DNA of 64,000 nt from Bispira polyomma (GCA_965649765.1 OZ287751.1:73532001-73596000), one strand, 5' to 3'; shown: positions 17,780 through 59,900, numbered from the stretch's first letter. Notes: generated by a model from the sequence alone, not told the origin. Numbers and translations: made by a program.

Positions 17780-17967
17780 TTAAGAACAGCTGACATGGAA
17801 GGGACTGCCCGGCACATCTTTGTCGCCATACCTCACCACGATCACGTAGTCTCCTGCCTCCTCCAGTTTGTAGCTCACGTTATAGATACGTCGACCCATA
17901 TGTTTGACCACGACCTCCTGACACGGTATAGTGGGGCCCATGATACCCACTAGGAGCATGTTAAACC
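17780..17967 (-). CDS. Filamin terminal coding exon, dimerisation repeat ([11 protein letters not shown]...FHVSCS*)
   Basis: acag|GG ... TAA. Confidence 0.92.
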
Positions 17968-26900: not shown

Positions 26901-29900
26901 CCAAGTTTTTTAATCACACAAGCATGCAACTACATCTCAGAACATACAGAATAAGTAAAAATAAAATGTAAATGGCGATCTGCCTGTTTAATCTGTTTGT
27001 GTAAAATTAACCAATAATCCCGTTTTCTAGACCCTAACAGTGATGTGAGCAAATTCATACCTGGCTCCACTTCCTGTACAAAAGCATGCTCCTCAGCTCC
27101 AGAAGGAGACACAACACGAGCATCCAGCTTGCCTTGAGCACCATTGAAATCAATGGTAAACTGGGCTGGTTTGTTGATCTGTGAAATATAACAAACGTCA
27201 CTAGGTTTATTTGAAGCATTCATGTAGCGCCTTATTGATACTATATCTTCTAAGGTGCTTGTTATCCAAGAAGGGATAAAGTCCGGAAATATAGCATTAG
27301 TCCTCATTAGTAGGCAATGGTATGTTCACATCTTGCCCAAGGATGTTATCCTCACAGTAACCATTATGGCATGACCAGGAGTCAAACCTGGAACGTTCTG
27401 ATCATCAGACCAACTCGCTAAACCCTAGAGCCCACCTATTTATTGCAATGTAGTTCCGGTTCATAAACATTGGAAGAAATTTGCACTTTCATTTAATGCA
27501 ACTTCCATGTCTTATCTGGTGCTACAGTTGTACAGGCAAATACAATACACTGTGCACATGGCCAAAGGCCACTGGGATGGCCTAGTTTAAACAATGTCTT
27601 ACTACTGGAGAACCTCTATTATCTGAATATTCAATTTTATGAACCCATGTCCACTCTCCCAATGTTTTGCCATTGGATTCATACAGAAACACCTCATTTA
27701 TTTGATAACCCTTTCTATTACCCAAACAAATTCGTCCCTCTCCTAACATGTTCAACATGTTTAACATGTAGGTTCTGTGCTATTAGTTACCTGTGTATAT
27801 GATGTACACTCACCTGTAGGTTCTGTACTGTTAGTTACCTGTGTATATGATGTACACTCACCTGTAGGTTCTGTACTGTTAGTTACCTGTGTATATGATG
27901 TACACTCACCTGTAGGTTCTGTACTGTTAGTTACCTGTGTATATGATATACACTCACCTGTAGGTTCTGTACTGTTAGTTACCTGTGTATATGATGTACA
28001 CTCACCTGTAGGTTTTGTACTATTAGTTACCTGTGTATAGGATGTACATTCACCTGTAGGTTGTAATCCTGTAGGTTCTCTACTATTAGTTACCTGTGTA
28101 TATGATGTACACTTACCTGTAGGTTGTAATTCTGTAGGTTCTGTAATGTTAGTTACCTGTCTATAGGATGTAGACTCACCTGTAGGTTGTAATCCTGTAG
28201 GTTCTGTACTATTAGTTACTGTGTATATGATCTACACTCACCTGTAGGTTGTAATTCTGTAGGTTCTGTAATGTTAGTTACCTGTGTATATGATCTACAC
28301 TAACCTGTAGGTTGTAATCCTGTAGGTTCTGTAATGTTAGTTACTTGTGTATAGGATGTAGACTCACCTGTAGGTTGTAATCCTGTAGGTTCTGTACTGT
28401 TAGTTTCTTAGTATCCCCAGTAGATGGAGACACATACACCTTAAATGGAGAGTCCGGGATGTGCTGGTCATTGAACTTCACAGACACCAAGTATTCACCT
28501 GTGTACACAGATTGGAACCATGTTATACAAAACACAAGTGTGTATCTAACTCTTATGCTATTTCAGCCTATACATTAACTCGCCGCAAATTTCCGTTAAC
28601 AACATTGAAATTTTCACAATTTCAATTAATTTCTATATCAATATGCAAACGATTATTTAATGATAAATCTTATGATGATAAATTGTCTGAATTGTCAGTA
28701 ATATTGTCTACTAGGGAACGGAAACGTCACCTGCCTTAAAATGTTCAATACACCAAAATAAGATTGCACCACCAAAGTAAACTAAAATCACATCAAAGCC
28801 CGAGTCATACTGAGAAAATAAAGAATTCCAAAATTGGCAAAAGTAGAATTAATATCAAACCGATAATGGGTAATTTAGAAAATACTAAAACAGACGCTCT
28901 ATATAATTTAAGCAAGGTTGTCTTCTAGTGGTGATTGAAAGATGGATTATCAGTATCTGTCTAATATTAGACCAGATGCCTGTGCTTTAATTGTCAACTA
29001 TGCATGATGGGACTTCAAATGTAGATTTTTTTATGTTTTCCTGCTATACATACCAGGTTCAGTACAGGTATAGTTCACTCCACATGAACCGTCTTTCCTG
29101 TCCTGGAAGTCTATGTCCGCCTTGGAGGGTCCTTCACAGGCAATAGACAAACCCCCAGCACCGGCCTCACGCGTGTAGATGTTAAAGTGACCTGGTAACA
29201 CAACAGGTATATTGTAAATAGGTCACCACAAAATGACATCATAGAAAAACAGGAGATTTGATCATACTGTGAACACAAACTTACCATGTAAGAATAGATT
29301 TTATACTCTAGAATCAACAACTTTCACATATAATATTTTATTACACTTACAAAAGTTCTATTTTACATTGTTCTCTCGACCACTGGGTTATACCTAGTTT
29401 AAACTGAGTGTTCACATATTTGTGGCTCCCACTGACAATATGATCTGCAAGGGCCAATATCTAAAGACATTCAAAGGCTGTCTTTCTTTAAATTTCTCAG
29501 TATTTAATCATTAAATTCATATAATTTAAACTACTCAATGATCTTGCCTGCACTAAAATACTCACAGCCAATAAAATTGGTTTTAAACTACATAATGAAA
29601 ACACAAACACAAAAATTCAGAACCTAGGCATATTTTCAATTCAACCCCTGTACTTAAATGACCTAGCCAATCCGATTGGTTTATAGAATTTAAACTAGCC
29701 AATGACATTTGTCAAAACAAATATTCAAGATCAAGGCATATTTTTAATCCAACCCCTGCACTAAATACCCAGCCAATCAGATTGGTTCATAGAATTTCAA
29801 CTACCCAATGAAATTTGTCAATACAAAACAAGGATATTTTTAATAGAACCCCATACTAAAATGACCCAGCCAATCAGATTGGTTCATAGAATTTCAACTA

Positions 29901-32900
29901 GGCAGTGAAAATTCTCCATGTGTTCTCTAAAACTCCCAGCCAATCAGATTAGTTCATAGAATTCAAACTAACCAATGACAATTCTTAATATATTGTATTT
30001 TCTAATATACTCACATGGCTTGTCCACTTCGCCTCTTTCCAGGCCTGGTCCAATGGCTCTGACCTTGTGAGCCCCACCATCAGTGATGGGCCCGACTGTG
30101 AACTGGAAGGGACTGCCTGGGATGTGCATGCCCCTGTGTTTGACACTCACTGTGTGCACTCCCATCTCCTTAGGCACAAATTTGATGCTATAGTGACAGT
30201 TGTCAATCTCCTGTATGTCACAAAGCTCAGTCACACCACTGGGACTGGTCACATGGGCCTCCATTTCTTGTACTCGGGTGCCTGAGTGGAAAAACGCAAA
30301 TAAAAGTTCTGACTAAGAAGAAAGTGATCAAAATGGGGAACTTTTAACTGCCTAAAGGCCATATACAGTTTGATATTGTCAAATTTAAAAACTTTTGATA
30401 TTTTTTCTCAAACCTTTCTCAGCAGGTTCTAAACACTCTTGTAGGACAAATAATAAGGGATAGGAAAAATCCAACAAGCATTTTGTAATTGTTACAGTAG
30501 ATATGCTTAATCAGTACATACGCTTAATCACTGATTTGGTCAGTCAATAGGCGATTTCCTGAAATTTTGATTAAATACGAGTGAATAAATGTCTAGCTTT
30601 GCCTTCAAGTTGAAATATTATTTGAATGCTTCCTTTTATCGATTCCTAAGCTATTAAATCAAGTGACATGCGATGTTCTAGAGCATTCATCAACATGTCC
30701 ATACAAAGCTTTAAACACAATCTCCTACAACTTATCCCAAATTAAATTTTTTCTGAGATTTTTTTAAAGCCCTTTTAAATATTACACTTAAACCGCTTTA
30801 AGTCAAACCCCTAAGGACCAGGATGAATATGTCTACTAAAGCAGGATTTCTCCTAACACGGTAGTCAAACAAAACGACTTTGTGGAACAGAGACATTAAG
30901 TAAACAGAATTTTACTTAAAGGAGTTTAACTCTATTTTCTTGATGTCGCAATCAATGTATTTTTTAAATATGGACTTTTAGGGAACATGTGAAGTATACC
31001 TCGTTATACAGACCTGGTATCTTTAAGCTCAGTTCACACTGAATACACCCAGTAATACACACCTGGTATCTTTAAGCTCAGTTCACACTAAACACATACA
31101 GTAATACAGACCTGGTATCTTTAAGCCAAGTTCACACTGAATACACCCAGTTGTACACACCTGGTATCTTTAAGCTCAGTTCACACTGGCTGCCCACTTG
31201 GGTGACATCTGCCGCTTCACGCTGTCTCATAATTCTCTCTGTCAGACGACCTGATGGCTCGCCACCGATCTTAACCAAGTAGGGACTGCCTAAAAAGTCA
31301 AGGGGAAATAAAGGTCAAACATTGACTGTACATGAGCTGAATTTAACATCACTATCAACAACTATTTATGATGGAGCAACAGGCACTTTATCGATAGAGG
31401 ACAGAAGAATAGGGTAATTGGATAAGATTTCTGAACTGCAAACTCAGCAAAGTCTACCACCTACTACTTCCCCACATATATTCCATGGCCAATAATCAAA
31501 ACCACAAAAATAAGAGTAAGAGGTAAGAAAGTTAGCTCTATATCACAGAGGCACCCCTGTACTAGATAGCACAGTGATGCAATAAGCTAAACACAAGTCT
31601 CAAGCACTAACTCAATGAAACTACACAGCAAATAATTTCAAGTCAACTTCTGTCCAGGAATTATTGTTTAACAGTCTTGTTAATACCAGTAATGTAAGGC
31701 TTATCGGTTAGAACTTTCAGCATTATACAAAATTTCCTATTTTTTTTACCATTATTTTAACCATCTACAAAGGTTGAAATTTACTCCAATAAATTAAATT
31801 AGACTAGTTCAGTAGTCAAATTGAAATGCTAGTCAAATCGAAATGCTACATGCTATACTGTCTATACCTGGAACATGTTCATCAGCAAACTTCACGTTGA
31901 CGATGTAGTTTCCTGGTTCGGTGGGTTTGTAGGTGACTCTACAGGATCCATCCTCGTTGTCATGACACTCAATGTCAGCCTTACTAGGGCCTTCAATGGA
32001 GAGGCTAAGACCACCGTAACCTAGCAACACACAGTAACCTTAGTACATCTGTCTCTTATACAGTACACAGTTTAGGACAATGTCAGCCTAACTGGGGCCT
32101 TCAACAGATGAACTCAGACCACAGTAACCCATAGTACAACATACATACATGGTAACCTTAGTGAACCAAACACACCATCCTTCTATCATAGTATATAGGT
32201 CATTGATGCACATAATGCTGGCAACTACATCCATACACAAACATGTAACAATTCATTTATAATACTAGTGTCTCAGTTTTAATGTGACCCGATTCCTGGG
32301 ATGTTCAAACTGTTTATTAAAAATTTATTGTAAACTAGAAACTTTTACATCGTTCAGCGTACACTTATATCTGTACACGGTAGCACACCACTACTATTAT
32401 TAGGCTTAAATTTTTGCTTCAGGCAATTTGATTGGCTGAAATATTGTTTTAAATAATCTGATTGGCTAAGATTAGGAAAACACTATTACATAAAGAATTT
32501 AGCCTGGACATGAGGAGTTTGTATGTTTGTATGAAGTTCTCTCACCTGCATCCTTGGTGTTGACACTGAATTCATTGAGTTCATTTGCCATGCCTTCAAC
32601 CAGGCCCTTTCCACTGACCTTCACCTTCGAGGCATTACCAATCTCGCTCTCACCGACATAGATCTTGAATGGGGAGTTAGGGATGTGACAACCATTTCTG
32701 AACACGTTAACCAGATGTTCTCCGACCTCGTGTGGGGTGAATGAGATTCCTGGGTTAAATAGAGGTGAAATAGAGGTTAAAAACAGGTCATATGAGACGC
32801 TTGGGTAAATATAGGTAAAACAAGTACTGAAGTTCAATTGATAGGATGGTCAAATAAGATGCTTGGGGAAATTGTAGGTAAAGCATAAACTAAAAGAAAT

Positions 32901-35900
32901 CTGAGACGCTTTGGTTTTATATATGAAAAAACAAACTGAATGTTCCATATCCTCATCTTTAAAATATGAATAAAGTGGACATTTTTTTCAGATAATAGCA
33001 GTTTACCTAGATGTCCGTTGGCCAGTCTCTTGAGTACACAGTGTTCCTCTACTCCAGATGGAGACTTGATGGTAGAGGTCAGGTTACTGATGTCTGCCTC
33101 CGTAACCTTCAGAGAAATCTCAGAACTTGTCCCCACAGACACCTGCGCCCTCTGGCGGTCACTGCTTGGTGCTAAACGGAGAATTAGGTCAACATACAAT
33201 GTGATTTTATACATATAGAATCAGGTAAACATTTAGATATTTATACATGTCTATATAATCAATTAAATAGATGTAGTACATATTTACTGAAAAATCGCTC
33301 TAAAAAGCCCATTTTTTTTGTAAGAGCAAACCCCTAATTTTATACACACAGTTAAAATTTTAATTGATAAAAGCACCTGGTTATAACAGCCCATCTCTTA
33401 TTTTGTCTAAGTAAACAGCCCATGGGCTTTATGAAGAGAGTTTAGATTATACTCTAGCATGTTCAGACAGCATCAAAGTTATTTCACTGGCCAACTTCAT
33501 GTGACACAATGGCGTAATATTTTCTAATATGGAGATTTATGCGACTATTTTGCCTTAGTTACCTAGATTCCAGTTATTTTTTGCCAGTTTTGATTGATTT
33601 GGCTTAAATTTTATGGATGGCAAATTTTAAGATTCTTTACTCGCAATCTATTTTAAACAAAGCTATTTATGCAAGTATAACACTGGCCTTTGAGCAACTT
33701 ACAAGGACTGGTGATCTTGGCTGTGTATGGGGATCCAGTGATGAACTTGTCTGCAAACTTGATGACAATACTGTACTCTCCTGGCATGGTTGGCATGTAG
33801 GTCACAGAACAGGTGCCGTCTTTGTTGTCTACACAGTTGATCTCAGCTTTAGAGGGACCTTCTACAGCCAGGGACAGGCCACCTGGGGGGATAGAGGGTG
33901 TGGTGTAATAAATAATGTATAGACAGTTGTTCTCAGCCTTAAAAGGGCCTTCTACAGCCAGAGACAGGGATATAATAGGCATTCAGAGACCCATGGATCA
34001 TTCAACACATCTCAGATGTGATGTAACAAACTAGTTAGATCGGATAATCTGTCTCTTTTAGCGAGATTCCTTGATGCTATTCAACGGCAATGCAGGCAGC
34101 TCTGTCGCCAATCGCCATTCCATCAATAAACAACAGACGTCAATTGGAGGCAGAACACTTGGTCCAACCTCCAGTAAACCACAGTCTCTAGCCAAATTTT
34201 CATTTATTTTCCCTCACAGAAGTGCATACTAAACCTCAGACAATTGCTACCCCACTCCTGGGCGGTTGGACACAATACGGCACTGGCGGAACCATTCTTT
34301 AAGTTCTAAGCAAATATTCAATAAAATTATTTTTCTGTAAAACAAACCAGGAAGTATAACAATTAATCTGTCAGGACAGATACTCCTTAAAGTTATAGCG
34401 TCAGTGACCACAGAGATATCAAAATTTAATCTATTCACCCAAAAACTTTTAATTTCACTCGTGTACGATTGGTTTGTTTGTCACTAGGATTACACAAACA
34501 TTCTGTACAGTGTAAATGAATTTTGCAAAAGATCCAAGTAGATGGGTGAATCAATTAAGTAGTTGTGTTTTCTTAACTTTTTTGCATTGTGACACCTTGG
34601 CGGCGGTATGAAATCTACTGAGTGCCCTTTTTAGCTGATTAGATATCACCACCTAATTAAATAGGATCCCCTAACCTGGACGCATTAGTTACCAAACTTC
34701 ATCAAAAACAAACATACCTGCTCCTGCATCCTTGGTGACAATAGTGAACTCGGTGGGGTGCCCAGCTACACCGTGACTCAGACCTGGACCATAGGCGTAC
34801 ACCTTCCCAGGGGTGGGGGTGTCTACATAGAACTACAATAGAGAGACAGGGAGTTAATGAAGTACACAAACTACTAAGACCTTGGACATACCTTTAATAT
34901 ACACTAAAACCTGACATGTTTCACTGTTACACATTTATCGATCCTATTGTTTTAAACTAAAATGTCTATACTCTGTTCCAATGTTTTTAGTGATGGTCAC
35001 TCTGTCACAAAGGTTTTCAGTGATGGTCACTCTGTCACAAGGGTTTTCGGTGATGGTTATACGGTCCCCAAGTCTCAAGGACTTGACCATTGAGTCCAAC
35101 AAGAAAACTTTTGGTTTAACTTCGATGTTCATAATCCTATTTAGACTTAAATATACTGGTATATCAGAGGCAGATCTAGGGACCTAGAAGACACACCCCC
35201 AAATCTTCTTTAACACATTTCCTGTTTAAATCAATAAGCACATTTGTAATTCTCACCTGGAAGGGGCTTCCACTGATGGGTTCATTATTGTAGGCCACAT
35301 CTAGTTTGTGGAGTCCAATCTCTGAAGGCTTGTAACGGATGGTCACTGTACCGTCTTTGTTATCGTCCACCTTGGGGTAGTGCTTCTTTCCAGAAGGAGT
35401 GGTCACCACCACTGTGTATACGGAGGGAGAACAAGTATAGACTTCGAGCACATCAGGGTATCCATGGTAAACTAAACTTAAGCTAGAACTCATTTGATTG
35501 ATTATTGGGGTTTAACGTCGCTTTTAACACATTGTATAGGTCACATCATGATGGGCATTATTACTGGTGGGGGAAAGCAGTGTATACCAGTTGGTCAAGA
35601 TTCTGCACTGTAAACCTTGAAAGAGGCTTGCCTGGGATTCGAACCGGGGCTTTTGCGGATCTTGAGATTAATAGTCGCATGCACTAACAGTTGAGCTAAA
35701 GGGGAAACCCTCAGAAGCCCCAGCCTTTAACGCACTGAGATACACTGATATTAAAAAAACCCTAAATCTGTTGTATTCAATTAGTAGACCTACTACCTGG
35801 GTCTGTAGTGGTGATCTTTAAATTACAGCAGAACCTTTATTATCCAAACTTCCATTGTCCAAATATTTAATTTTGATTAACTTAATTTCACTGTCCCAAA

Positions 35901-38900
35901 TTTGCATTTAGGTATTGATTCATAGTAAAATGCCTCTTCTATTTTATGAACATTCTATTACCTCAACAGATTGTTACTCTAAGGTATTTGGCTAATAAGA
36001 TATTTCTACAGTTCAAAATCAAACTGTAATTCATTTTCTCAATGTGGAAATATCCAATGGTTGTTGAGGTTGTATTCCAATAGTATAGCTTTTAATGTTG
36101 ACCTGGACTATGGACTAAGATTGCCTGTTTTTACTGTTGGCAGAAATTATATAGCGAGACCAAAGGGCTTGTATTTATCAAAGTTGTCAATTTCACAATA
36201 ATCTCAAAATATGTCCAGCTATATCTTTGTTTACAAGCGAGATGTCTAATAACAGACTACATACTGGAGTTCTTAACTGAAAGCTCTATGAAAATGAATG
36301 GTTATTGTATGCCTTGGGTATTGTGTGGGAGTTTATACCTTTGCAGAATTGGATTTCATCCCTACTCTTTAGTCTGGTACACGTATTACGCTGCTGGTTA
36401 CCCACAGTCCGACTTAACTGCTACCCCTACCCTCATTCCATCCCCCCCCACCCACCCCGCCCCACACACACACACTTACCTGAGACAAAACCGTCACTCC
36501 TCACCCCCCACACTTACCTGAGACAAAGCTGAAGATGGGTCCCACAGGTATACAGAAATCTACTGGTTCCAGTAAGTCAGAGGACACGGGTGCGCTCCTT
36601 ACTGAGTCCACTTGATCTGGCATAATCATGTCCTCCCCAGCCTGGAGAGAGAAACATGGCACAGGTTATAATACAGTAGTAATACAGCCTCTAGTACACA
36701 AACACTGTGTGAACAGAGAAGATAGGTCAAGTATAAAATAAGAAAATAAGAGAGAAATAGTCAAATTGGGGAGAGGGCAGAAAAACAAGTTCCTAAAATG
36801 TAATACAGTAGACTCTATAGGAGTGTTCATAGGATTTGGTTCTACTTATGGTCAACTTGTACTTATACCTAATTTTTTTTTTTTTTTATTAAAAACTAGT
36901 ATTTTTGAATATGGGAACAAGTTAAAATTGGTTCTAGTTACACAGAAAGTTGAATTATTATACTGGTTCTACATTACAGAGAGTCAACTGTATTGACGTG
37001 ATAAAGAGGTTTGGATATAAGAGGGACTAGAAAGTGGGTCTCATTCAAAATGTAAACACTAAATGTATACACTCCTCCTGTTGGTAAATATCAATGGAGG
37101 ACTGATCCTAATAGAAAAAGGGAAACCAAACAAAAAGGCATATAAAATGTTAATTGATAAGGTTGTGATGAAAAGTAAACAGGACCAGGTAACTATGAGC
37201 ATGTTTGTCTTTGTTGGTCAGTGCATCCAAAGCATAAGAATCAGGGTTGGAACCACAAGGATGTGCTCCTCTGAGTTTAAAATTGCTTCTTTTAACTATC
37301 CTCTTGAGCACGATTTCAAAGATGGCGGCCAATATCCGCATCAAAAATTAGAAATCAATTTTAAATGGTTTATTAATTTTTTAATGTTTTATTTGGAAAA
37401 TTAGACATTTAGAGCACCATCCATTTTCACCTCTTTGTTTACTATATCAGTCAGTGCAAACTTTATCTGCGGAGCACTGGATGCACAAAGCCAAACACGC
37501 TCTATAAGACTGCGCCCCACTCTAATCCATATATTCACATGTTTAGAATATACCTTATCTCAAAAAACTGAACTCTCTACTCTCTCTAAACAAAAAAACC
37601 TAAAGGTGAATGTTAAAACTCCACTGCTTTTAATGACATCATACTAACTTTTTATTTTAGTGTATTATCCTTAAAATTGTTGGGTTTTTAATGTCAGTTT
37701 TTTACAAATTACCCATTATAGTAAAAAATTAAAACTAGAAAATCTGTCAATTGACTTAAAGAGCAATGAATCTATTATTAAACATTGAAATACTTTTCTA
37801 ACTTTTGTCACTATAGCTACAATATACACTACTGCCCAGGTCACTCTAACATGTTATCACCCAAAACGTAAGGTTACTATACTACAAGCTACAAAACAGC
37901 AAAGTCCTAAAAACAACTGGAGATTTAGCTATTAAAACATGTACTGAAACTAGAAAACTACCATTAATAGAGTTATACACAATATGTAAGTAATTATATC
38001 AACTATATTAGTAACAAAAAAAAACACATAAAAACTAAATCTGCTGTCTCTAAAACAGGAAAAAAACACAAAAATATCCAGGGACCTCTATTTAGCACAG
38101 GTTTCAAACTTAAACTCACAATTATCTCAAAACAACTGCTGTATCTGTATGAAAAATAGATATCTAAAATGTGACTACATATTTGAGTTCCTCCCTGTAA
38201 GTTCTGTTAAAATGAATCGTAACATGTCTTGGTTCTTCCCATTAATAAGGAAATTGATACATGTTGTTTATGAGTTTAAGCATGAGTTTAAGACCACTGA
38301 TCAATACAAACCCTGTAAACATACGGTCAATCTTCCACAAAGCCACTTCTTGGCAAGAAATTATCAAAATTTCATGTGGGGACAGAAACGAATATATATG
38401 TTGTGACAGAAATGTCAAACATGACAAGATATGACATTCTGTTGACAGAAACTCCAATCCTAGTTGATTTAACAATCACACGCATATTTAACTTAACGGG
38501 TGTTGGATTACTTCAAGTAAAATTTTAGATTACTTCTGTAAGTAATTAACACTACACTGACATGAAATTTTGTCATGTTTACCAATGGATTGTAGTACCT
38601 ATTATTATTTGTTGTCTCATTTCTCCTTTTTTTAAACTGACAATTGTATATCTCTGTCCAGTGACTGAAGTAAAATACTAATTTGGGGCTGGCGACTGCT
38701 TGCCGAGAAACAAAGTTCCTGCGAATAACAAACACTGTCGACTGCTAGGCCACAATGTTGTTGTTAAAGTTTATCTAGCTGAACACACACACCCTGGCAT
38801 GACAACCAATTACAATTTAACTATGTTTTAACTTCTGAAGCAATATTAATGATACCCTTTGCTGATTTATCTTGGGGTACAGTAATTTAGATGATTTCTC

Positions 38901-41900
38901 TTGGGGTACAGTAATTAAGATGATTTCTCTTAGGGTACAGAAATTAAGATGCAAATTATCATGAAATAGAGAGTCACTGTTAGCTGAGAAAACAGTGATG
39001 TATTATGAAAATCTGGCTGGACATTTGTGCACATTGGTACATCCAATGGACTGTGCTGCTCTATACTATTGCTGGAACTGATGAATAATTTAGTGCAGAC
39101 TGCATAGGAAGTAAACACCTAGAGATATACTCAAAATGCCAATCAGGCCTGGTGTAATCAGTGGGTCATATACAGAAAATATGAACTTAAGCTGAATATA
39201 CAGTAGAAATGGTTTACACAAAAAAGTTTCTGCACTTCGCAAATATATAATATACTAGGTGCAGCTATATTTGTTTTATGTGCAAAATTTCAACATGATA
39301 GAGAAATTAGAATATTATTGATTTATTCAGCTTGAAGACCAGACACAGAAAACTATCACTGTTGAGTTGAATTAGAACAAAAGTTAAGTTGGGTGTTTTT
39401 TTCATTTTGTGCTGGTAGATTAGACAGCAAATTAGACAGAAACTTACACAATAGAATTAAAGAAGTATAAAACACATACTTTACACTGATTTTCTATATA
39501 ATTATCTTAGTATGAACAGACTTATGCATATGTGTAGGGCTAGATATAATGAAGTAATCACAGAAATTATATATGTACCATAATTATTCATATAAAATTC
39601 CAGGGCGTTGTATTTTTCCAAAGATTGAGAATTTGACTGCAGTGGATGACAATTAAAGTAAAGTTGCATTTCACAACACAAATACACTGTAATCAAATCA
39701 CCTACCTTATGTTAGTTTTATTATTTAAGATTCCGGTTACTAAGTAGGCTAATACTAGCACTGCTTTTCCAACAAAATTCCACATATATATTAACTAAAA
39801 TACTTTTTTTAAACAAACTTAAATCTGCAACAGACATTAAAATTTTTCTCTATGATATTATAAACTAGTAAAAAAAGTTAATTAAATCTATAACTGAAAC
39901 AAACTACAAAAAAAGAAAATAATAATAAAACCTGTTATTAACAAGTATTACAAATATTAAGACACACACAAAATAAGAAAAACTGCACAAATCTTGGAAT
40001 AATATATAAACACACAAAGAGACATAGAGATCATTATCAAACAAATTCATGAAATACACCAATTTCAACAACAAAAAGTAGAGAAATCAATAGTAAAAAC
40101 ATCAAAAAGAAAAAGTTTTATTTCACAATTAAATACACCTATATAACAACCACATTAAGATTAGTTAATAAAGAAAGAACACAGATGTGCTAGTAGTGTG
40201 CGTACATAAAAAACCCTGTAAAAAGTGCATGTTTGTGCATCCTTTGCTTGTATTAAAGTCTCAAAGAGGAAACTCTACAATGAGCAGTAATACTAGTAGT
40301 AGTAGTAGTAAGTAGTAATATAAGGGGCAGCGTGTGATGTCGTGTATGTATATATACCAGTTTTTCTGCCAATCGTTCCTCTTCCAAGATCCTAAGGTAT
40401 TCTTCAGGGACTACTGCCTGTGTGGATGTATATATAGAGACACACACTCAGAAATACATGCAAGCAACAACTCTCTTATTAATAAATCACTATACCACCA
40501 AAAACCCTCCGCAATTAGGTCCCTAGTATGTCTGCTAACAAGCAACGACTCAACGATCCACAGCAAAACCCTAAGCAATTAGGTCCCTAGTATATCTTAC
40601 CTATGAAGCCACCTAACAAGCAACAACTCAATGATCCGCAACAAAACCCACCGCAATTAAGTTGCTAGTATGTCTTAACTTGAGAGCCAGCTAACAGGCA
40701 ACAACTCAACGATCCCTATTCAAAACCCTCCACAATTAGGTCCCTAGTATGTCTTAAACTGAGAGCCAGCTAACAGGCAACAACTCAACGATGCCTATTT
40801 AAAACCCTCCGCAATTAGGTCCCTAGTATGTCCTAATTATGAAGTCACCAAACAATTAACGAATCAACGATCCACAACAAAACCCTCCACAAGTAGGTCC
40901 CCAGTATCCAATACACACCAAAACCGCTGCACTTAGGTCCCTAGTAAGTCTCACCTTGTAAGCAACCTAACAAGCAATGGTTCTCTTAGCTATCACTACC
41001 ACTAAACCCCTCTTTACTAAATCCCCATTACATCCTAACTCGGATGAAATGATGACTCTTTTAATCAGGACATCAGTAAGTATGCTTTACTTTATTTTCA
41101 CTTCCAGATTTCAAATGTTGATTATAAATTATTCTCAGAAAGCTTAATCATGATCCCTTGTAGTAATTTGCAATAAACCCAAAGCACTGGTGCTTAAAAA
41201 TAAGGAAGTGTGCATGTGACATGCAACAGCAAAATGTACAACTGATCAGCCAATAAAGGCATAAAAATATAACAAAATTATTGGAAGTTGAGTTGTTGAG
41301 GCCTTGACATACCATATAGAGAGTAAGAATTCTTTTCTTCAGTGCCTCAGGGTCAAACTTAGTTTTTAGCTGGCTGGGTGACATTACTGGACTTGCAACA
41401 TCTCTATTAGCCCCAGAAAACCCTGGCTCGCTAATATTGGTTTGTTGAGTGTAACTGGTTTCCCTTTTTGCGTAATTCTTCGGCCGTATTGGTGCTAGCC
41501 GTTCCTCCCACAGTTTATAGTATGCATGAAACGGGCTGGAGGGGTCTTTACTATCAGGGCTTTTGATTGGACTCCTTAAGTTGTTCAATGGACTTTTAAA
41601 ACGATTGTCTATTTCTGATCCCCAATCGGCTGAAATTTTGTCAGGACTCTTTATGCCATTTACTGGACTTTTTATGCTGTAAACAGGGCTTTTTAAACCA
41701 CTGTTTTGTGGAAGTGTGCTTGAGCCATGGGCCCCTGACAGTGGATTATCTTTGTGCTGGTTTCTGCTATAGGTGGTCTGTATTCCACTCAAACCTTTAT
41801 TTCCGCCATAAGTACTACTGGATCCGGTTGTATATTTGGAATCACTCTTCTCTGGACTTTTGCCAAAACTGGTCCTGATGTTACTTAATCCTGTGGGAAT

Positions 41901-44900
41901 TTTATTTGGGGTGTTAGGCCCTTGTGAAAAACTGGTGCCAAGAATTTTTACTGGAGTGTTTGTTGTAGAACTGGTAGTTGGGCTACCTCTGTATGGACTC
42001 TCGTACACTGCCGATCTCTGAAGCGTTTTTGAACCCGAATAGGAGTCCCCAAATCTTAATGGTGTATATCCAGAATTGGTACTTCTATTTGCAGAAAATC
42101 CAAAATTTGAACTTTTTGAGCTACCTACTTGACTTCGTGGAGATTCTGCCGTATCATTGGATCCGGTATGCCTATTGTTAGATTCTCTATCAGGAACAAG
42201 GCCAAAGAACTTGGCCCTTTCGTGTCTCAATTTGTACGTGCCAGGAAGCTTGCTTTCTATATCTTTACTACTGTCACTGGAGCTTGCAGCGGGATTTCTT
42301 CTGCTATTTGTACTAGATTCCAGTATTTGGTTGTAGGAACCCTGAGCCTTGGTTTCTGGTTCGTGACTACTGTCTAAGCTCTTTACATTACCTGATGAAT
42401 ACGAGGTACTGGGAGATGGAATCCTCTTCTCAGTGGAAGCTGGTATTACAATGCTCTTTATATCATTTACAGAAGATGAAGCCTTGGGGGACATATGGCT
42501 ACTACTTTGATCTGGACTACTTACTGTATGCACATTGTTCCAGGTATTTGGTATTTTGCTCAATTTGTCTAGTGAATCTTTACCAGTTTCTTCTGTTTTC
42601 ATAGAGTAGGAGCCTCTGGAAAACATAGACCTGATTTTACTGAATCCTCCGAATGTTTCAGTTGGACTTTTACCCGGGCTTGTGAGAACCGTGACTGGGA
42701 TCCTGGTAGATTCTGTGGAATCCTTACTCTCACTTGTACTTTCATTGCCAGCCTCTTTCTTGATGAAGGCACTCCTCACTGAACTGCCATCAGGACTTCT
42801 TCTGGGACTTTTTCCACTCTCAGCAAATCTCTTCTGCCCACTGCCTTCTACGGGATTGGGTAATTTGGACATTTTCTTGACCTTAGTCTCAGTTCTAGCC
42901 GATTCTTTCTTTGGACTTGGACTGCTGCATCTATCTGGCGAGTACCTTTTGGATTCCTTCCGTGGGCTGTTTTCACCAGTCCTGGTGACCTTGCAATTTC
43001 TCCTGGGACTACTTGAACCAGGACTATTTCTTGTGGGACTAGAGCTCTCCTGTCTGATTATAGAGTATGTGTATTTGGACTCCTTTTTAGGGCTTCTCTC
43101 ACGACTCTTAGGACTAGAATTGTTACTCCTTGGACTGGGCAGCTGTTTCACTCCACTCCTCTCTGAAGCCTCTGTATTTGTATACACAACTGGTCTGGGA
43201 CTTGGACTTCGCCTATGTGATATGGGGATACCTCTAGCTTCTCTCTTTGGGCTTCCCTCACCACTTTTCTTCCTGTTATACTCGTGACTAGGACTCCTAG
43301 TCGACTGATAGAAGTCTCTCCCCTGTCCATTCCTTTCAGAATTCCCACCATATCCCCCTCTTGTTTGACTTTGAGGTTCGCGGAGCCTCACAACGTTGAC
43401 TTCCTCTGATGATTTCCTTTCAGATCTACCCTCCTTATTAACTACACCGTCCTTGTGGTATCCAAACCCATCTTGCATCGGGCTTCTACTCGGTATAGAT
43501 GAATGCTGGACAGGTATCCGTCTAGCAGCATCAACAGTGGCGCCACCTTTACTGTCGACACCACCTTTGCTTCTCGAATTATAAACAGGGATCCCTTTAG
43601 CACTATAACTGGAATTCATCATTCTCTGGCCGAATGCTGAATGTAAACTGTGTGTTGTCATGGGAACCAGGGGACTTTCCGGTCCAGTTTTCACGATATC
43701 GTAACCAATTACAGGATCTTGTTTATTCTCAATATCATTAACCAAAAGCAGTGGCTGTGATTCTTTTAAAGTCCTGCGGTCAAAACTCCAGTTTTCCTTG
43801 TTCCTGTTGTGAACTGGACTAACTTTGCTGTGCTTTATATGTCTAATAGGAATCTCCATAATTCTCTAAATTTAGGTAGCATGCCTGCATTATTATTTAG
43901 AATATCCTTTATTTAAACTTCACATAAATGTATTTTTGCCCTGAACTTCCAGGTCATTTACTTAAAATGAAGATAATCCTGTATGAACTATAAGGTTGAC
44001 ATTTCTTAAGTTCTTGATAAATGTATAAGTTCTCTGAACTACGCACTTTTTATAAAAGTAGACTAACAAAACTGTTGTCTTACTAAATGTAGTTTGTGGG
44101 AAAATGCATTTAAAACATATATATATATATCAGCTGCAATAAACCAGTTTTGATATATGTTGTACATGGGAGGTTGTTTATAGCATCCTGGGTTCATTTC
44201 ACAGCTTAGCAGAAAAAGTAGACAATACTTAGGAAGAAATTAATTACACTGCCCTCTCTTTGTAATAAATGTCAAGTTATTTGACATTCTTCACTTCTAT
44301 TCAGAAAGAGATATATTGCACCCCATACCATCGGGCCTTCAGAACCAGGGAACTACAAACATTGGTGGCATCACAAACTTAAAGCAGTATCTTAGCTTTC
44401 GCTTATAAATTCAGAACCAATCATCCTGTGACCTTTCTGTTTTATACTAGACTTGCATCCTACCTCATTATATATTTATTTAAGAGAGTTTTTGCACCTT
44501 AACTTTTATGGTTAACTATAAAATAATAGTTTAAAACAAGACTAAATCCTGCATACTTTACTCTTGACTTAAGTTTTAAAGTGAGTTCCAGTAGTTCTTA
44601 CAGTTTAAGCTCCAAGCCTTTAATCTGCCAGTACAATGACGTCAGCACAGGCTGGTATTTATTTAATCTACCACCAGCTGTAGAATGGTATTTACTTAGA
44701 GATATAAGCCCGCTCAAAAAGGGTCTACCCTTCCTAATTTTATCAGGTACTAGGGAATGTATTTCTCCAAAAAAGTTGATTGATGAAAACGCTAAAATAA
44801 ACCCAAAGCTTGTCAGATCACCAGTGATGAAACAAGAATATTGTGAGAACTGTATAGACTTGTGATGTCATCATCTCACTGACAATAGATGAAAGTTTGA

Positions 44901-47900
44901 ATTAAGTTTGAGCAGTAGGCACACACTGCAGATTACTCTTATTCTAAAGGAAATAACCCTCAATACAACCCTCAATACATTGTACACCTAGGACTGATAT
45001 CCTTAATCAACCGAACACTTCTTAACCTATTGCAAACTCTTTTTATCAATGTATTAGAAAAGAATCAAACAGCTTATTGTTTGTCATATCAAATCTACAA
45101 GAATATCACCAATATTAATATAAAGATTTCGTGTTTTAAAGTTAGTATAAAAATTAAAAGAGCTTGCAGTTTAGAGTGCTCTGCCTTTAATCTGTCACTC
45201 CATTTGTTCACATAAATAGCTTAGGCATCTTACTACTACACTTGCAAGTAAGTTAATATTAAATATACCCATAACAATAGAAATGTATATAGAGTACACT
45301 GCAAGGTTTAATACTTTTTAAAAGAGAGATACAATTGTAAAATGGAAAAACATGCATAAAAGTGCAAAAGTTTTCAAAAGTTTTTAAGAAAAAAAAAGTT
45401 AAAAGATACATAGTAAGATTGTAAAATCCATTCCCAAATGGTCGCCTCCCACTTTCACGTTGGCCTTGCAATTATCTTCGCTTACCCATCTTGCATATCT
45501 TGCAGGTTAAAAATGGCCAACTAATTCCCATATTTCGTCGTGGTCAGTTTTGATCATATTACGGATGGAGGAAAGTATAGTGATGCCCTCTGCTGTGTCA
45601 TGTTCATTGCAGAAATTTAGGATTTTTCTAAATTTCCACAATGGTCATGGAGATCTATGCTTACCCAGGGTTTCAGAAGGAAATCCCTGTGGGATCAATA
45701 TATTATCCTGGTTACTTAGAGGGATCTCTATGCAACCAGCTAATCATCATCGTTGGTTAAACTCTTATAAGTGGGAGGCGGGCATAAGGAAAAATAGAGA
45801 TGCTTAAAACTTGTGTATATAAACTAAACATATTATATATAATATAAGACAATTTTATACAGCACTGAAATCAGATCACAACAGCTTTAGTATGCACCAA
45901 GATTCTTTAAACTGATGCTGCTGTATACTTAAATATAGTTAACTCTATTACAAGCACTGTTTCCATATAACATATACAACTAAAACTTTTCAATGTCACA
46001 TTTTCTGTAAAGCCTCTCAGAATTTATTCAATTAATTGAAGAAAAAAAAACTTATGTGACTTGTGTACAATGTCAAAGTAGTAAAATGTTGGAATCATCA
46101 GCACGGAATAACTCCAGACACAATACATTCTTAACAATTGTTGTAAACTTACTAAGATTAAAATTCACTTCACAGAAATCAGATATAGTGTTTACAGTAG
46201 ACTGTATAAATAGAACCAGTTTTAAGGTCCCAACATCAGAAAATGCTATATTTTTGTTGGTACAAGTGGAAGTTAGCTATAACTAGAACCCAATACTGTG
46301 GATATTGGAGGTTCTAATTATGCAGAGTATACTGTAATATATACATTAATTGAACTGTATTCAACAGAATAATATAATTTATACCATTATTTCAATGAGA
46401 AAACACAACAGACTGCAATAAAATTCTTTTAAAATTTGGTACATAATTTTTCTTAGCATGTAACTTGCATCATTTAAAAATGTATTTAGAAAGGGGCAAT
46501 TGCACTAAATAGAGGTAACTTTTAATGAATTCTAAAAGTCTGGCACTATTTTAACAAATCTGACCTCTGTGAACCTGTTAACTAATTAACAATACTAAAA
46601 ATTGCTTATAATTTAAGACTTTTTACTAAATTAGAAACAGTGAAAGTTGCACCCACCTCCTGTACAATCTCCCCATTGGGAACAGGCTGTCCACCAAACT
46701 TGATACTCAGGGTGTAAGCGCCAGGGACACGTGGGGTGTACATAATGCTCACTGTACCGTCTCCATTGTCAACTATGTCAATGTCCACATCACTGGTAGC
46801 GTTACTATGGATACGACATGTCACGTTACCATAGCCAGCCTCAGAAGCATTGACGTTGATGACGCATTCTTCGCCAACTGGGATAGTGGTCCTGATACCA
46901 TCTGGTGGTAAGAAACAGAACTACATGTACATGATAGAATGGGAAACTTTATATACTGTAATGTTTACTTATTTATACGCGTGTGATCCCGATACTATCT
47001 TGTGGTGAGAAACACAAGTACGTAATAGAATGGGAAACGGTATACATACTATAACTAGACTTACATAGACTTATCTATACTCATGTGGTCCTGATACCAT
47101 CTGGTGGTGAGAAACAGAACTACATGTACATGATACTGTGGGACGCTGTATACTGTAAAGTTTACTTATTTTTACTCAGGTGGTCCTGATACCATCTGGT
47201 GGTGAAAAACAGAACTACATAATTGAATCGAGCATGTCTAATGCCAGCTTTTCCATATGTATGCCAGAGTGGAAATTTAAACCCATGATTACAGAGGTAG
47301 GAGCCTAGTAGTATGTTACCACTACACCAACGAGGCCCCCGTTATAAATTGTAGAATTTAAAAGAAAGTTTTCTTTGAGCCGAAAAAGGTATCCCCTATA
47401 AAAGAGGAAACTAATTTCTCAACATAGTTTTCTACTTAAGGTATAAAGAGTAATTACATTCTGATGATATATCCTGAAGATGCAACACAAAGTACATCAA
47501 ACATTCTACACCTTTTGTCTGGCAAATCCTCAAACCATAACGTTTTAATCTTAGAACCTCTCAAGATTTCTGTTAAAATTGCCTGGAGTCTCAAAAATAA
47601 CTTAAAAACTAAAAAGTACTATTTACAAATGATTTTTTATTTACATTAGCTTAGAATTTATACTGATTTTCCTCAGGGCATATCTCTTCCGAACTAACCT
47701 GCAATCTTGACTTTGCTGGCGTCCCCAGTTGGACTGGTCATCACACTGAAGGGAGCGCCAGGGACAGGCTGACCACCAAACCTGACCCCCACAGAGTAAG
47801 GGCCAATATCCTCTGGTGTGTAACTCACTCTGTAGGTGCCGTCCCCATTGTCTTCTATCTTTGGGCGCACATAGTTACCACTAGGATCCTGTAACCAGAC

Positions 47901-56900: not shown

Positions 56901-59900
56901 TAACAGACAGGTGAAAGATGAAGTCTGGTTTACAATAACAGCTGGGGATGGAGAAGTTTTTTCACTATATATGTTTAGGGAAAAACAGTATAGCAATTTT
57001 AGAACTACTTGATGCTATTCATAAAACATAACCAGATATTTCAAAACAGAAGACAATTTTGTACTACACAACCAACAATGGTTACTTTGTAGTTTAGCAT
57101 TATTACTTTCACACAAGACAACTTCAGACTCTGGAACCTTACAGTGCAAGTAACTAGGGTAGGATTACACCCTCCAGGTGGGATTTGATACATATATCAT
57201 CTAACAAGGGAAAAACATTTAAAAGTTAAATTTTTAACTTGTTTAAGCAAAATATAAGCACATTGCAAACCATGGTGGATAGCTTTATGCCTTAAGGATG
57301 TGTGGTATCCACATTCTTTAGGTATCCACATTGCTAATATCACTATATCATGTCAATTTAGGAGAGTGAATCAAATCACTTTAGGTTATTAGGATGGGTT
57401 CTAATTGTGGATACCTCTCCTCTTACGACAGAAAGGTAGCCACAATTACATGGTATACAAAATTACATGGTATCCACAATTGCAGGAAATGGTATTTTTT
57501 ATACTGTTTAACAAGTCGTGTCCATATACCCATAAAGTACTCAATAAGCTAACCTGGCCCTGCATCTGAGCAGTCTACCACTAAGTGCGTGGGCTCGAAG
57601 GTCTTCACATAGCATACATATTAAGTAGATTGCCATGTAGTCATTATACATGCTGTCTTATATACACTCCACAAAATATCTACTGTTCTACATACCCTTG
57701 ACACCTATTAAGCTTACCTGGCCCTGCCTCTGAGCAGTTCACCACTAAGTGTGTTGGCTGGAAGGTCTTATGTACACTCTGCAGAATATCCTCTGTTCTA
57801 CGTACTCTTGACACACCCATAAAGCTTACCTGGCCCTGCCTCTGAGCAGTCCACCACTAAGTGTGTTGGCTGGAAGGTCTTGACGGGTTTCTCCACAGCT
57901 GGACCATACACCTTGACCTTGGCTGGGTTGGAGGCCTCCTGTACCTGTACTCTGTACGGACTGTTAGGTATAGACACACCACCGTAGCTGATGATAATCG
58001 TGTGCTTGACGTTCTTCTTAGGCATATAACGGCATCGGTAAGTCCCATCTTTGTTGTCACTGACAACCACCTGGTAGTTATGTAAAAGACAAGGCTGTAT
58101 AGAACAGACGTGAACGATGTCTTCGCTTAAAGACTAATATTATTATCTAAAACTTACCAACTTGCTATGTATAGTAGAACCTCTAGTATTGGATCTTCTA
58201 TTATCTGAATATTTCATTTTATTAACTCATTTTCATTCTCATAAACTTTTGTTTTCCTATTGTTTTGTGCCAAATATTTTATGAATTTTCTTTTGTTAAA
58301 AAAAAATGGCTCTCCCAACATTTTTAGATAAACTAAGTTATACTGTACTTGGTACACCTTTCCAAAATTCTTATTTACAAAGTGAAGAATGTATACTCTG
58401 AACCTTGTCTATGATTAAAGGCGGACATCAAAAACATAGTTAATCTTAAGGATTTTATTCAGTAGTTAGAACACCTGTCAGGTGATAAATTGTCCATCAC
58501 ATACATCTATGTATTCTAAAGTTATTAAAGTCACACACCTAGTTTAGACGTATATTTGGAAGTTGTTGTTTAGAATAATTAGCCATGTTCAATGTCAAAG
58601 TGACCGTTTGTAAACCTACCTCCACAGGGTTGTAGTCAGCATCCATGGCGGCCACATGTAGAGTGGCTTTCCCAGCCTTACGCGTGTCCACGGTAAACTC
58701 TGCCCACTTATTGACGGTCACTCCAGTTTTCTCCAGACCAGGTCCTTGGGCTGTTGCCTAGAGAACACACAAATAAACGCACTTAAAACTGTCACAAGTG
58801 TACAAGAAAAATTTCTTTGTAAATTGTGAAACTGACACATAACAACCATGGGCTGTTACATGAAGAACACAGTCACCCTAAACCACAACAGATGTTGAAC
58901 ATAACACTTACAACATGCCTAGAGAACAACAAACTATACCCCAAACACCTTTTTTTACTTGGGTTTTAATAAGATAAAGAAAAGAATATTCTTGGATAAC
59001 CTTGTTTAATTCATCTCACAAATCCAGATTAGTTAAAACTGAAGTAACATGCTCCCAATACGAGCTTATGGTGGCTTATCTGCATTGGTGGGTGATACTT
59101 GAGGATTTCAATTAATTATTATTGTATTGGGTTATATATAGAATACAAACCTTATAAAAAAACATTTCTGCTTAAAGTTGTATTTTATTAAGATAAACAA
59201 AATCACTTGACAAGGATTTTTAGATTTAGCTTGGTTTTAATGCTGATTTCAACAACTAAGTAGGCAGTTAGTGCTGCAAGCAGTATAGGGTAGTTGGTCA
59301 ATATTTATAAAATGCAAATCACCAGCCTTCAGCAAGACTACTGCGAACGTATCCACATATATATCACGGCTGAGATTAAAACCCTCGACTGCAGCAGTGA
59401 GAGGCGACACTGGTACTTCTACACTTCACCATCCGACATATTTTCTTACAGTGACGGTACCCCTTACTTACCTTAGAAGAATCAAAAGCCCCCATATTGG
59501 GCTGTACATCTGTCATGTACTTACCTTGCTAGGATCAAAAGCCCCCATATTGGGCTGTACATCTGCCATGTAAGGAGACTTGGGGATGTCCTCCTCATTA
59601 CACAGGATATGTACAGCGTATTCACCAGGAGCAGTGGGCCAGTAAGAGATGTCTGCAGATCCATCCCCATTGTCCTTACAGTCAATCTTGGCTTGAGATG
59701 GTCCCTCAATAGAAAAGCCTGGAGAGTACATAGATGTACAAATACATACAATTTATAGTTTGAACTGACCCTTGTTGAGGTCTCTGGTAAAGAGCCAAAA
59801 ATTGTTGATTGATAAAAAGTGCATAATCTTTTGAGATGGTCACTCAAAAGAATAAACATGTGTATATAAATACATCTAGTAAAGTTTAAATATATCCTTG

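Follow-up and report, generated by a model that had tools for sequence, protein, structure and literature searches.

The question raised by this locus is what a coding exon of 849 codons is doing inside an intron of a filamin gene. The exon lies on the minus strand of a 64,000-nucleotide stretch of the genome of Bispira polyomma (GCA_965649765.1 OZ287751.1:73532001-73596000), here called the window, from whose first letter all positions are counted. An earlier note on the window had suggested that the exon carries BAG3-like motifs that bind small heat-shock proteins (sHSPs), together with EB1-binding motifs, next to the force-sensing filamin repeats 16-21. The interpretation favoured here, with a probability of about 0.4, is that it is an alternative first coding exon giving rise to a short filamin, the basic, predicted disordered head of which carries five sHSP-binding IP[IV] motifs.

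A conserved giant exon in hinge 1 of a filamin gene

The giant exon, rich in serine, proline, lysine and arginine, extended from an ATG to a splice donor (41313..43859, minus strand), within a 905-codon open frame (43865-41148, minus strand) that also held the region described in the earlier note. That region (42240..43859) belonged to a real giant exon but covered only its first 540 codons, the exon continuing for a further 309 codons to position 41313. On sequence grounds, the 849-codon frame is a conserved coding exon, because the chance of so many open codons was ~1e-26 at the local stop frequency, an orthologue (P0001) aligned with it over the whole length, from the same first methionine to the same donor (53% identity with BLASTP, 56% with MAFFT), and conservation ended at the donor: similarity to P0001 stopped exactly at the GT at 41313, and the read-through tails beyond it differed in length and sequence. 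The exon was single-copy in the 1.04-Gb host genome, and DNA contigs from three runs spanned it unbroken, with no splice joint or variant inside it, which is evidence neither way on splicing.

P0001 was the one orthologue among 7984 scored candidates of near length; none was added by 7959 longer candidates, and P0001 was again the only sequence recovered when 1.84 billion representatives were searched with a profile, a result that does not amount to absence, as animal proteins and isoforms may be under-represented there. The giant exon is therefore either lineage-restricted or missing from the collections. No Pfam family was matched on it, and in the Atlas the top score was 0.80 with the whole exon, residues 760-849 giving no usable hit. 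Its product was basic (isoelectric point, pI, of 10.1) and predicted to be disordered: FoldIndex was below 0 in 88% of its windows vs. 12% for the filamin repeats, and the predicted local distance difference test score (pLDDT) of an AlphaFold2 model, built from a two-sequence alignment, was below 50 for 789 of the 849 residues (mean 35).

The host gene is a filamin, also on the minus strand: the full-length filamin of a relative (P0017) gave 36 collinear tblastn matches over its residues 198-2717, in the window and three upstream stretches, and PF00630 was found by Pfam on three of the exons. This filamin, like the two-domain sHSPs of the host, seems to resemble its counterparts in molluscs and their kin. 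The giant-exon frame sits in a 10-kb intron, between an exon ending at 46657 and one starting at 36641. The upstream neighbour (46657..46901, minus strand, phase-0 end; P0017 residues 1747-1819) was best matched, among solved structures, by a two-repeat chain of filamin C, 7ouu, at its second repeat. Downstream, a phase-0 acceptor opened an exon encoding the end of the hinge and the start of repeat 16 (36518..36641, minus strand; P0017 residues 1839-1879, 63% identity), and the remainder of repeat 16 (35257..35411, minus strand) best matched the first repeat of the filamin A chain 2k7p and of the filamin B chain 5dcp. Because the flanking exons best matched the second repeat of 7ouu and the first and second repeats of 2k7p and 5dcp, which we take to be filamin repeats 14-15 (7ouu) and 16-17 (2k7p, 5dcp), the intron corresponds to hinge 1, the junction of repeats 15 and 16. 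The flanking exons thus map to repeats 15, 16 and 17, and the earlier note was right in placing the giant exon beside repeats 16-21.

A hinge microexon of 60 nt (40358..40417, minus strand, phase 0-0) was the top match of 9970 intron positions to the P0017 hinge; it started exactly at a CAG and its donor was in the 96th percentile. P0017 and another relative transcript, P0002, have different hinge peptides between the same flanks, so the sequences indicate alternative splicing of hinge 1 among these animals. The P0002 transcript has a distinct 14-residue hinge, and its second hinge microexon had no clear match within the host hinge intron. In the exon that opens repeat 16 (36518-36641, minus strand), positions 5 and 7 are Met codons from which a plain isoform of FLN90 size could start.

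First coding exon or cassette

The ends of the giant exon were scored with splice-site models trained on this one gene, with borders set by eye; the acceptor model used 27 sites and superseded a 19-site model that was biased by a pyrimidine filter. The phase-0 donor closing the exon (41307..41315, minus strand) scored 7.7, in the 97.8th percentile of all GT and within the range of 24 constitutive donors. Before the ATG, a single AG was in frame (phase 0; 43860..43885, minus strand); it lies six bases upstream of the Met, and an exon using it would start at 43865. It was a very weak acceptor: it scored -3.1, lower than each of the 27 constitutive acceptors (-1.7 to 12.9 in leave-one-out scoring), which put it in the 43.5th percentile when every AG of the window was ranked. 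The Met was codon 3 of the open frame, which has a chance of 0.04 if the exon is a cassette, and the chance of an in-frame AG lying so near was 0.18. Residues 1-50 were 76% identical to P0001. Fly FLN90 and worm FLN-1C, nine-repeat C-terminal filamins produced from their own transcripts, offer a precedent (PMC5173320, PMC3143143, PMC5521747, PMC11221683). Because of the poor acceptor, the normal donor, the Met at codon 3, the high identity from that Met onwards and this precedent, the giant exon is probably a first coding exon rather than a cassette; by analogy, it more likely starts a short isoform that, like FLN90 and FLN-1C, would do without the actin-binding domain than lies within full-length filamin.

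The model implicit in the earlier note was that of a giant cassette, placed by splicing between repeats 15 and 16 in a full-length filamin of ~3,400 residues, where hinge 1 would become an 850-residue spring or spacer carrying the same motifs. Several observations speak for such a cassette and to that extent weigh against a first exon: the giant exon is phase 0 at both ends, like its neighbours, the in-frame AG does exist, four upstream ATGs are found at most 120 bases from the Met, and the hinge is a splicing hot spot where relatives use different microexons (P0002 vs. P0017). Weak acceptors are, moreover, frequent in regulated exons, and the scores depend on the eye-set borders of a single gene. 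We nevertheless consider the cassette unlikely, given that its AG would be poorer than every constitutive acceptor and its Met improbably placed; that no filamin with a comparable insert was present among the 7959 longer candidates scored is weak evidence in the same direction.

Within 1 kb upstream of the Met (minus strand), a perfect cAMP response element (CRE) palindrome (44637-44644), TATA-like words and two E-boxes were found (positions 44054, 44136 and 44680). They were nominally above chance (11, 11 and 25 of 1000 mononucleotide shuffles, respectively), were picked after the fact and were not used as support for a promoter. A MEF2-like word at the edge of the giant exon was at chance level (487/1000 shuffles).

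IP[IV] motifs and putative docking of small heat-shock proteins

The minus-strand frame contained all ten motifs named in the earlier note, each of them where it had been placed or at most a few bases away. Five share an IP[IV] core. The first, IPI at residue 3 (43845..43853, minus strand; IPIRH at 43853), was the sole one with a conserved histidine. The second and third, IPV at residues 90 (43584..43592, minus strand; IPVYN at 43592) and 115 (43509..43517, minus strand; IPVQH at 43517), formed conserved islands, the former in a zone of 35% identity and the latter with its His replaced by Asn in the orthologue; the same replacement was seen in the fourth, IPI at residue 211 (43221..43229, minus strand; IPISH at 43229). 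The fifth, IPV at residue 387 (42693..42701, minus strand; IPVTV at 42701), overlapped a TRIP word, and the orthologue reads VPIPV there, with the motif shifted by two residues.

Enrichment was assessed against 3000 composition shuffles of the 851-codon frame, for 14 patterns picked after the sequence had been seen; shuffling within 50-residue blocks gave the same outcome as shuffling the whole frame. IP[IV] was present five times in the exon (0.26 expected, 0/3000 shuffles) and five times in P0001 (0.24 expected, 0/3000), and IP[IV]xH three times in the exon (0.004 expected, 0/3000), whereas the generic [IV]x[IV] pattern was not enriched in the exon (9 vs. 6.2, 468/3000). The pattern had been picked with the sequence already in view, and proline-centred motifs tend to be favoured in disorder (PMC8047445); a rate from outside was therefore also used, namely 1,868 [V/I]P[V/I] among 2,945,909 disordered human tripeptides (obtained by subtraction from Appendix Table S4 of PMC8047445). 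At this rate 0.54 [IV]P[IV] cores were expected in the exon; five were found there (a ~9-fold excess, P=2.4e-4) and six in the orthologue, five of them IP[IV].

Four of the five IP[IV] cores were identical in the orthologue and the fifth was shifted by two residues, a conservation above that expected from per-residue rates (p=0.012, two sequences). Across the poorly conserved stretch of residues 80-200 (35% identity), conservation was confined to 5 of the 118 four-residue words, three of which corresponded to the two IPV sites. FoldIndex was negative around four of the five motifs (+0.04 at the fifth), and pLDDT was low at all five, in a model from a shallow alignment. In BAG3 the motif is IPVxH, with a His at +4. 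The His was present in 3/5 sites of the exon and retained in the orthologue in 1/3, so that, as judged from these two sequences, the motif is IP[IV] and not IP[IV]xH; the BAG3-like core proposed in the earlier note held up in both species, but its histidine did not.

On the giant exon, no WW or BAG domain was found by Pfam. The BAG3-type gene of the host lies elsewhere, with a WW exon followed by an exon that carries two IPI motifs and a BAG domain (L021:910-1938, L023:6989-7312); the single BAG-domain match of the host was 3 kb behind the WW exon, in compatible phase. The two motifs of this protein read REIPIMH and RQIPIQR (His in 1/2), and the giant exon begins MEIPIRH. The host genome also has at least 22 crystallin-domain matches, many of them in two-domain sHSPs (L001-L020 were fetched; L013 has a stop inside the match). 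One sHSP (L019) contains STRIPVNV, to be compared with STRIPVTV in the giant exon, and another (L002) has RVPIR near its start; R-[IV]-P-[IV] words ahead of the first crystallin domain were present in 2 of 17 distinct frames, from the 20 loci fetched of the 22 matches. In human HspB3, an N-terminal EIPVR motif is discussed as a groove ligand (PMC6119766), and BAG3 binds sHSPs via two IPV motifs (PMC5478690).

Two further ideas were dropped. Host sHSPs were considered to end in an IP[IV]xH tail, and this was rejected, the single-domain ones ending in LQI-type words. Docking sites for mitogen-activated protein (MAP) kinases have basic residues 2-4 positions ahead of a hydrophobic pair, and one of the five IP[IV] sites fitted this rule by eye. 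When exon residues 84-124 were modelled in complex with one alpha-crystallin domain of the host (L004), the score was 0.04, with alignments unused and controls not folded, and this weighs neither way.

Several points count against a specific sHSP dock. The IP[IV] sites were not significantly better conserved than other proline tripeptides with a hydrophobic neighbour (4/5 vs. 17/29, p=0.63), and their mean flank identity (0.60) was above the exon mean (0.53); conserved islands, which the earlier note had suggested looking for, were seen at the two IPV sites of the 35% zone. The loss of the His in two of three sites and the conservation being based on a single orthologue in the searched collections, hence on two sequences, point the same way. 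In addition, as described in PMC8047445, disordered regions have a general excess of [V/I]P[V/I], and wild-type HSP27 did not pull down several of the proteins that bear the motif. Taking together the motif excess and the similar motifs of the host BAG3-type protein with these objections, the chances that the IP[IV] motifs of the exon bind sHSPs, as the earlier note had supposed, appear evenly balanced.

SxIP-like motifs and EB1

The second proposal of the earlier note was that SxIP-like motifs of the exon bind EB1, a gene for which is present in the host. Three of the five sites it named were identical in P0001: SKLP at residue 331 (42858..42869, minus strand), SKIP at residue 434 (42549..42560, minus strand), which is the sole conserved strict SxIP, and SKLP at residue 536 (42243..42254, minus strand), after which comes a conserved stretch predicted to be helical (residues 541-551). 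SSIP at residue 120 (43491..43502, minus strand; SAAP in the orthologue) and TRIP at 42707 were lost, and an NKIP beyond the range of the earlier note was identical in both species. The excess over shuffles anticipated for the named motifs, found for IP[IV] and IP[IV]xH, extended to [ST][KR][IL]P (exon 4 vs. 0.22, 1/3000; orthologue 3 vs. 0.24, 10/3000) but not to strict SxIP, which was at chance in both species (exon 2 vs. 0.55, 310/3000; orthologue 1 vs. 0.47, 1112/3000). The wider [ST]x[IL]P was present six times in the exon (1.43 expected, 6/3000), and three of these six sites were identical in the orthologue (p=0.098).

The residues following the three conserved sites are NPVEGSG, NTWNNVH and GTYKLRH, with a basic tail in the last only, and each site has 1-2 acidic residues within five positions. 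The statement of the earlier note that all the motifs lie in a basic context goes too far: TRIP has two acidic and one basic residue within five positions, and SKLP at 42254 two acidic ones. A bare SxIP motif binds EB1 very weakly and requires hydrophobic and basic residues after it, and a ligand with SRLP shows tight EB1 binding (PMC12695022). Binding of EB1 by the three conserved SK[IL]P sites, perhaps weak, is thus possible, though it would not be our expectation.

It could be argued that EB1 is the main partner of the head, and that SK[IL]P motifs in tandem, which phosphorylation would switch off, would make a filamin that tracks microtubule plus ends. The [ST][KR][IL]P excess in both species, the identity of SKLP, SKIP and SKLP, two of them with flank identity of just 30-40%, the conserved NKIP, the pI of 10, the predicted disorder, the SRLP ligand and the presence of EB1 in the host are all consistent with this. 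That function seems rather unlikely nonetheless, considering that strict SxIP was at chance, that SSIP and TRIP were lost, that the conservation of [ST]x[IL]P was not significant, and that NPV, NTW and GTY with acidic neighbours follow motifs which, when bare, are very weak ligands (PMC12695022).

Conserved blocks outside the named motifs

Eleven islands of 84-89% identity were detected between the giant exon and P0001, most of them without a named motif. The longest conserved blocks were residues 1-79, 647-698, 716-736, 771-800 and 834-849; that the best-conserved ones (1-79, 647-698, 771-800 and 834-849) are mostly other than the named motifs also weighs against sHSP docking as the main role of the head. 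The N-terminal block (residues 1-79; 43623..43859, minus strand) comprised three islands at 84-88% identity, and the block at residues 771-800 (41460..41549, minus strand; 87% identity) included a predicted helix. Short helices predicted by AlphaFold2, from a shallow alignment, at residues 541-551, 776-788 and 837-848 coincided with conserved stretches. Forty serine/threonine-proline (S/T-P) sites were counted in the exon, in agreement with the "dozens" of the earlier note (17.8 expected, 0/3000 shuffles), and 40 in P0001; the full cyclin-dependent kinase (CDK) consensus was present 16 times in each.

Because the conserved islands lie mostly outside the named motifs, the head may have a main partner other than those proposed. 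The named motifs would then be secondary in a basic, phosphorylation-tuned scaffold that acts through its longer blocks and short helices on a lineage-specific partner, cytoskeletal or nuclear, and the IP[IV] motifs would have a ligand other than sHSPs. The islands, the helices and the CDK sites shared by the two species fit such a scaffold. It is judged improbable, as it leaves five IP[IV] motifs per species, and their survival in the least conserved zone, unexplained, and with no Pfam family and no usable Atlas hit it has no nameable partner.

The proposed short filamin

Since its phase fits both downstream filamin exons (the microexon and the repeat-16 exon), the donor of the giant exon very probably splices onto repeat 16. 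In the opposite case, the frame would not be joined to repeat 16 but would close an N-terminal filamin fragment as its alternative last exon, or would belong to a separate nested gene. This is highly improbable, for although the open reading continues 54 codons beyond the donor to a stop and worm FLN-1B terminates in its own exon (PMC3143143), conservation ends at a donor of suitable phase and the read-through tails differ between the species.

We infer the splicing, start, binding and regulation of the short isoform as follows. An internal promoter in the hinge intron would drive a transcript in which the giant exon is spliced onto repeats 16-24, giving a short filamin of ~1,750 residues: 849 from the exon, 20 from the optional microexon and ~890 for repeats 16-24 (estimated from P0003). 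The actin-binding domain and repeats 1-15 would be replaced by the basic, predicted disordered head, whose five IP[IV] motifs would bind the beta4/beta8 groove of sHSPs. Filamins dimerise through repeat 24, and their repeats 16-21 open under force; the dimer would thus present ten IP[IV] sites beside the force-sensing repeats, as a built-in chaperone dock. Through the 40 S/T-P sites, 16 of which match the full CDK consensus, the head would be open to tuning by proline-directed kinases, and some weak EB1 binding may come from the three conserved SK[IL]P sites. The complete picture would be that of a built-in BAG3 mimic: an isoform with an 850-residue disordered head instead of the actin-binding domain, which would hold sHSPs near the force-sensing repeats with ten IP[IV] per dimer and would perhaps be linked to microtubule plus ends under kinase control through SK[IL]P. 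In its entirety this picture is doubtful.

Other features of the locus

Residues ~880-1160 of P0017 contain extra near-identical rod 1 repeats, with no counterpart exon in the gene of the window. Short tandem arrays at 57655-57881, 59465-59572, 17932-18397, 31006-31188 and 46886-47220 overlapped or abutted filamin exon borders, duplicating splice sites, and a partial copy of an exon start at ~33900-33970 resembled these array-duplicated borders. Downstream of filamin, on the opposite strand, two protein-like open frames (8612-8938 and 5816-6142, plus strand) without a Pfam match are perhaps exons of a neighbouring gene. Two other tandem arrays, 2758-3565 (36-nt x 22) and 27767-28405 (48- and 63-nt units), contained long repetitive open frames that by their look are not genes.

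Significance and comparison with known systems

In the titles and abstract openings covered, no paper paired "filamin" with "giant exon" and none reported such an exon; subscription papers on molluscan filamin isoforms were outside this coverage. Chaperones normally reach filamin via separate adaptors, BAG3 with HSPB8 (PMC5478690). If the proposed reading is true, a filamin with its own sHSP docking array would provide a natural test for the idea that sHSPs recruited locally protect a force sensor without BAG3, and it would extend the short-filamin design of FLN90 and FLN-1C, a large swappable head taking the position of the actin-binding domain. Should the motifs bind no proposed partner, the exon would still mark a gap in annotation: 2.5 kb of conserved sequence within the filamin hinge, several conserved blocks of which are unexplained. 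The weight of the proposal is limited by its being based on two species of a so far narrow lineage.

The giant disordered exons of ankyrins and skNAC are likewise single, very large exons that add a disordered, motif-bearing segment to a scaffold in one isoform; they are internal cassettes in other genes, and no sequence relationship with the filamin exon is claimed. With the SxIP ligands of EB1, such as MACF and CK5P2, the giant exon shares S-K-[IL]-P, several copies in a basic, Ser/Pro-rich disordered chain and a putative location on a dimer; unlike those ligands, as described in PMC12695022, it has a single conserved strict SxIP, the residues after its motifs are not of the high-affinity kind, and acidic residues are nearby.

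The layout of the proposed isoform is known from FLN90 and FLN-1C and its motif from the IPV region of BAG3, yet the exon is not a BAG3. In common with the IPV motifs of BAG3 and the IxI/V motif of sHSPs (PMC5478690, PMC8047445, PMC6119766), it has an I-P-[IV] core in several copies on a disordered chain. In contrast to BAG3, it has neither a WW nor a BAG domain by Pfam, hence no BAG3-like link to Hsp70, and its five copies, known here from their sequence, are on the client protein itself and do not conserve the His. Drosophila FLN90/CherA-B and C. elegans FLN-1C, which are scaffolds in muscle and synapse, would resemble the proposed isoform most closely: they start in the hinge before the last nine repeats, do without the actin-binding domain and keep the force-sensing and dimer repeats (PMC5173320, PMC5521747, PMC11221683, PMC3143143). 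As these papers describe them, they are proteins of 90-100 kDa (836 residues in FLN-1C) with no long head, to which the host isoform, should the giant exon be its first, would add a disordered head of 93 kDa.

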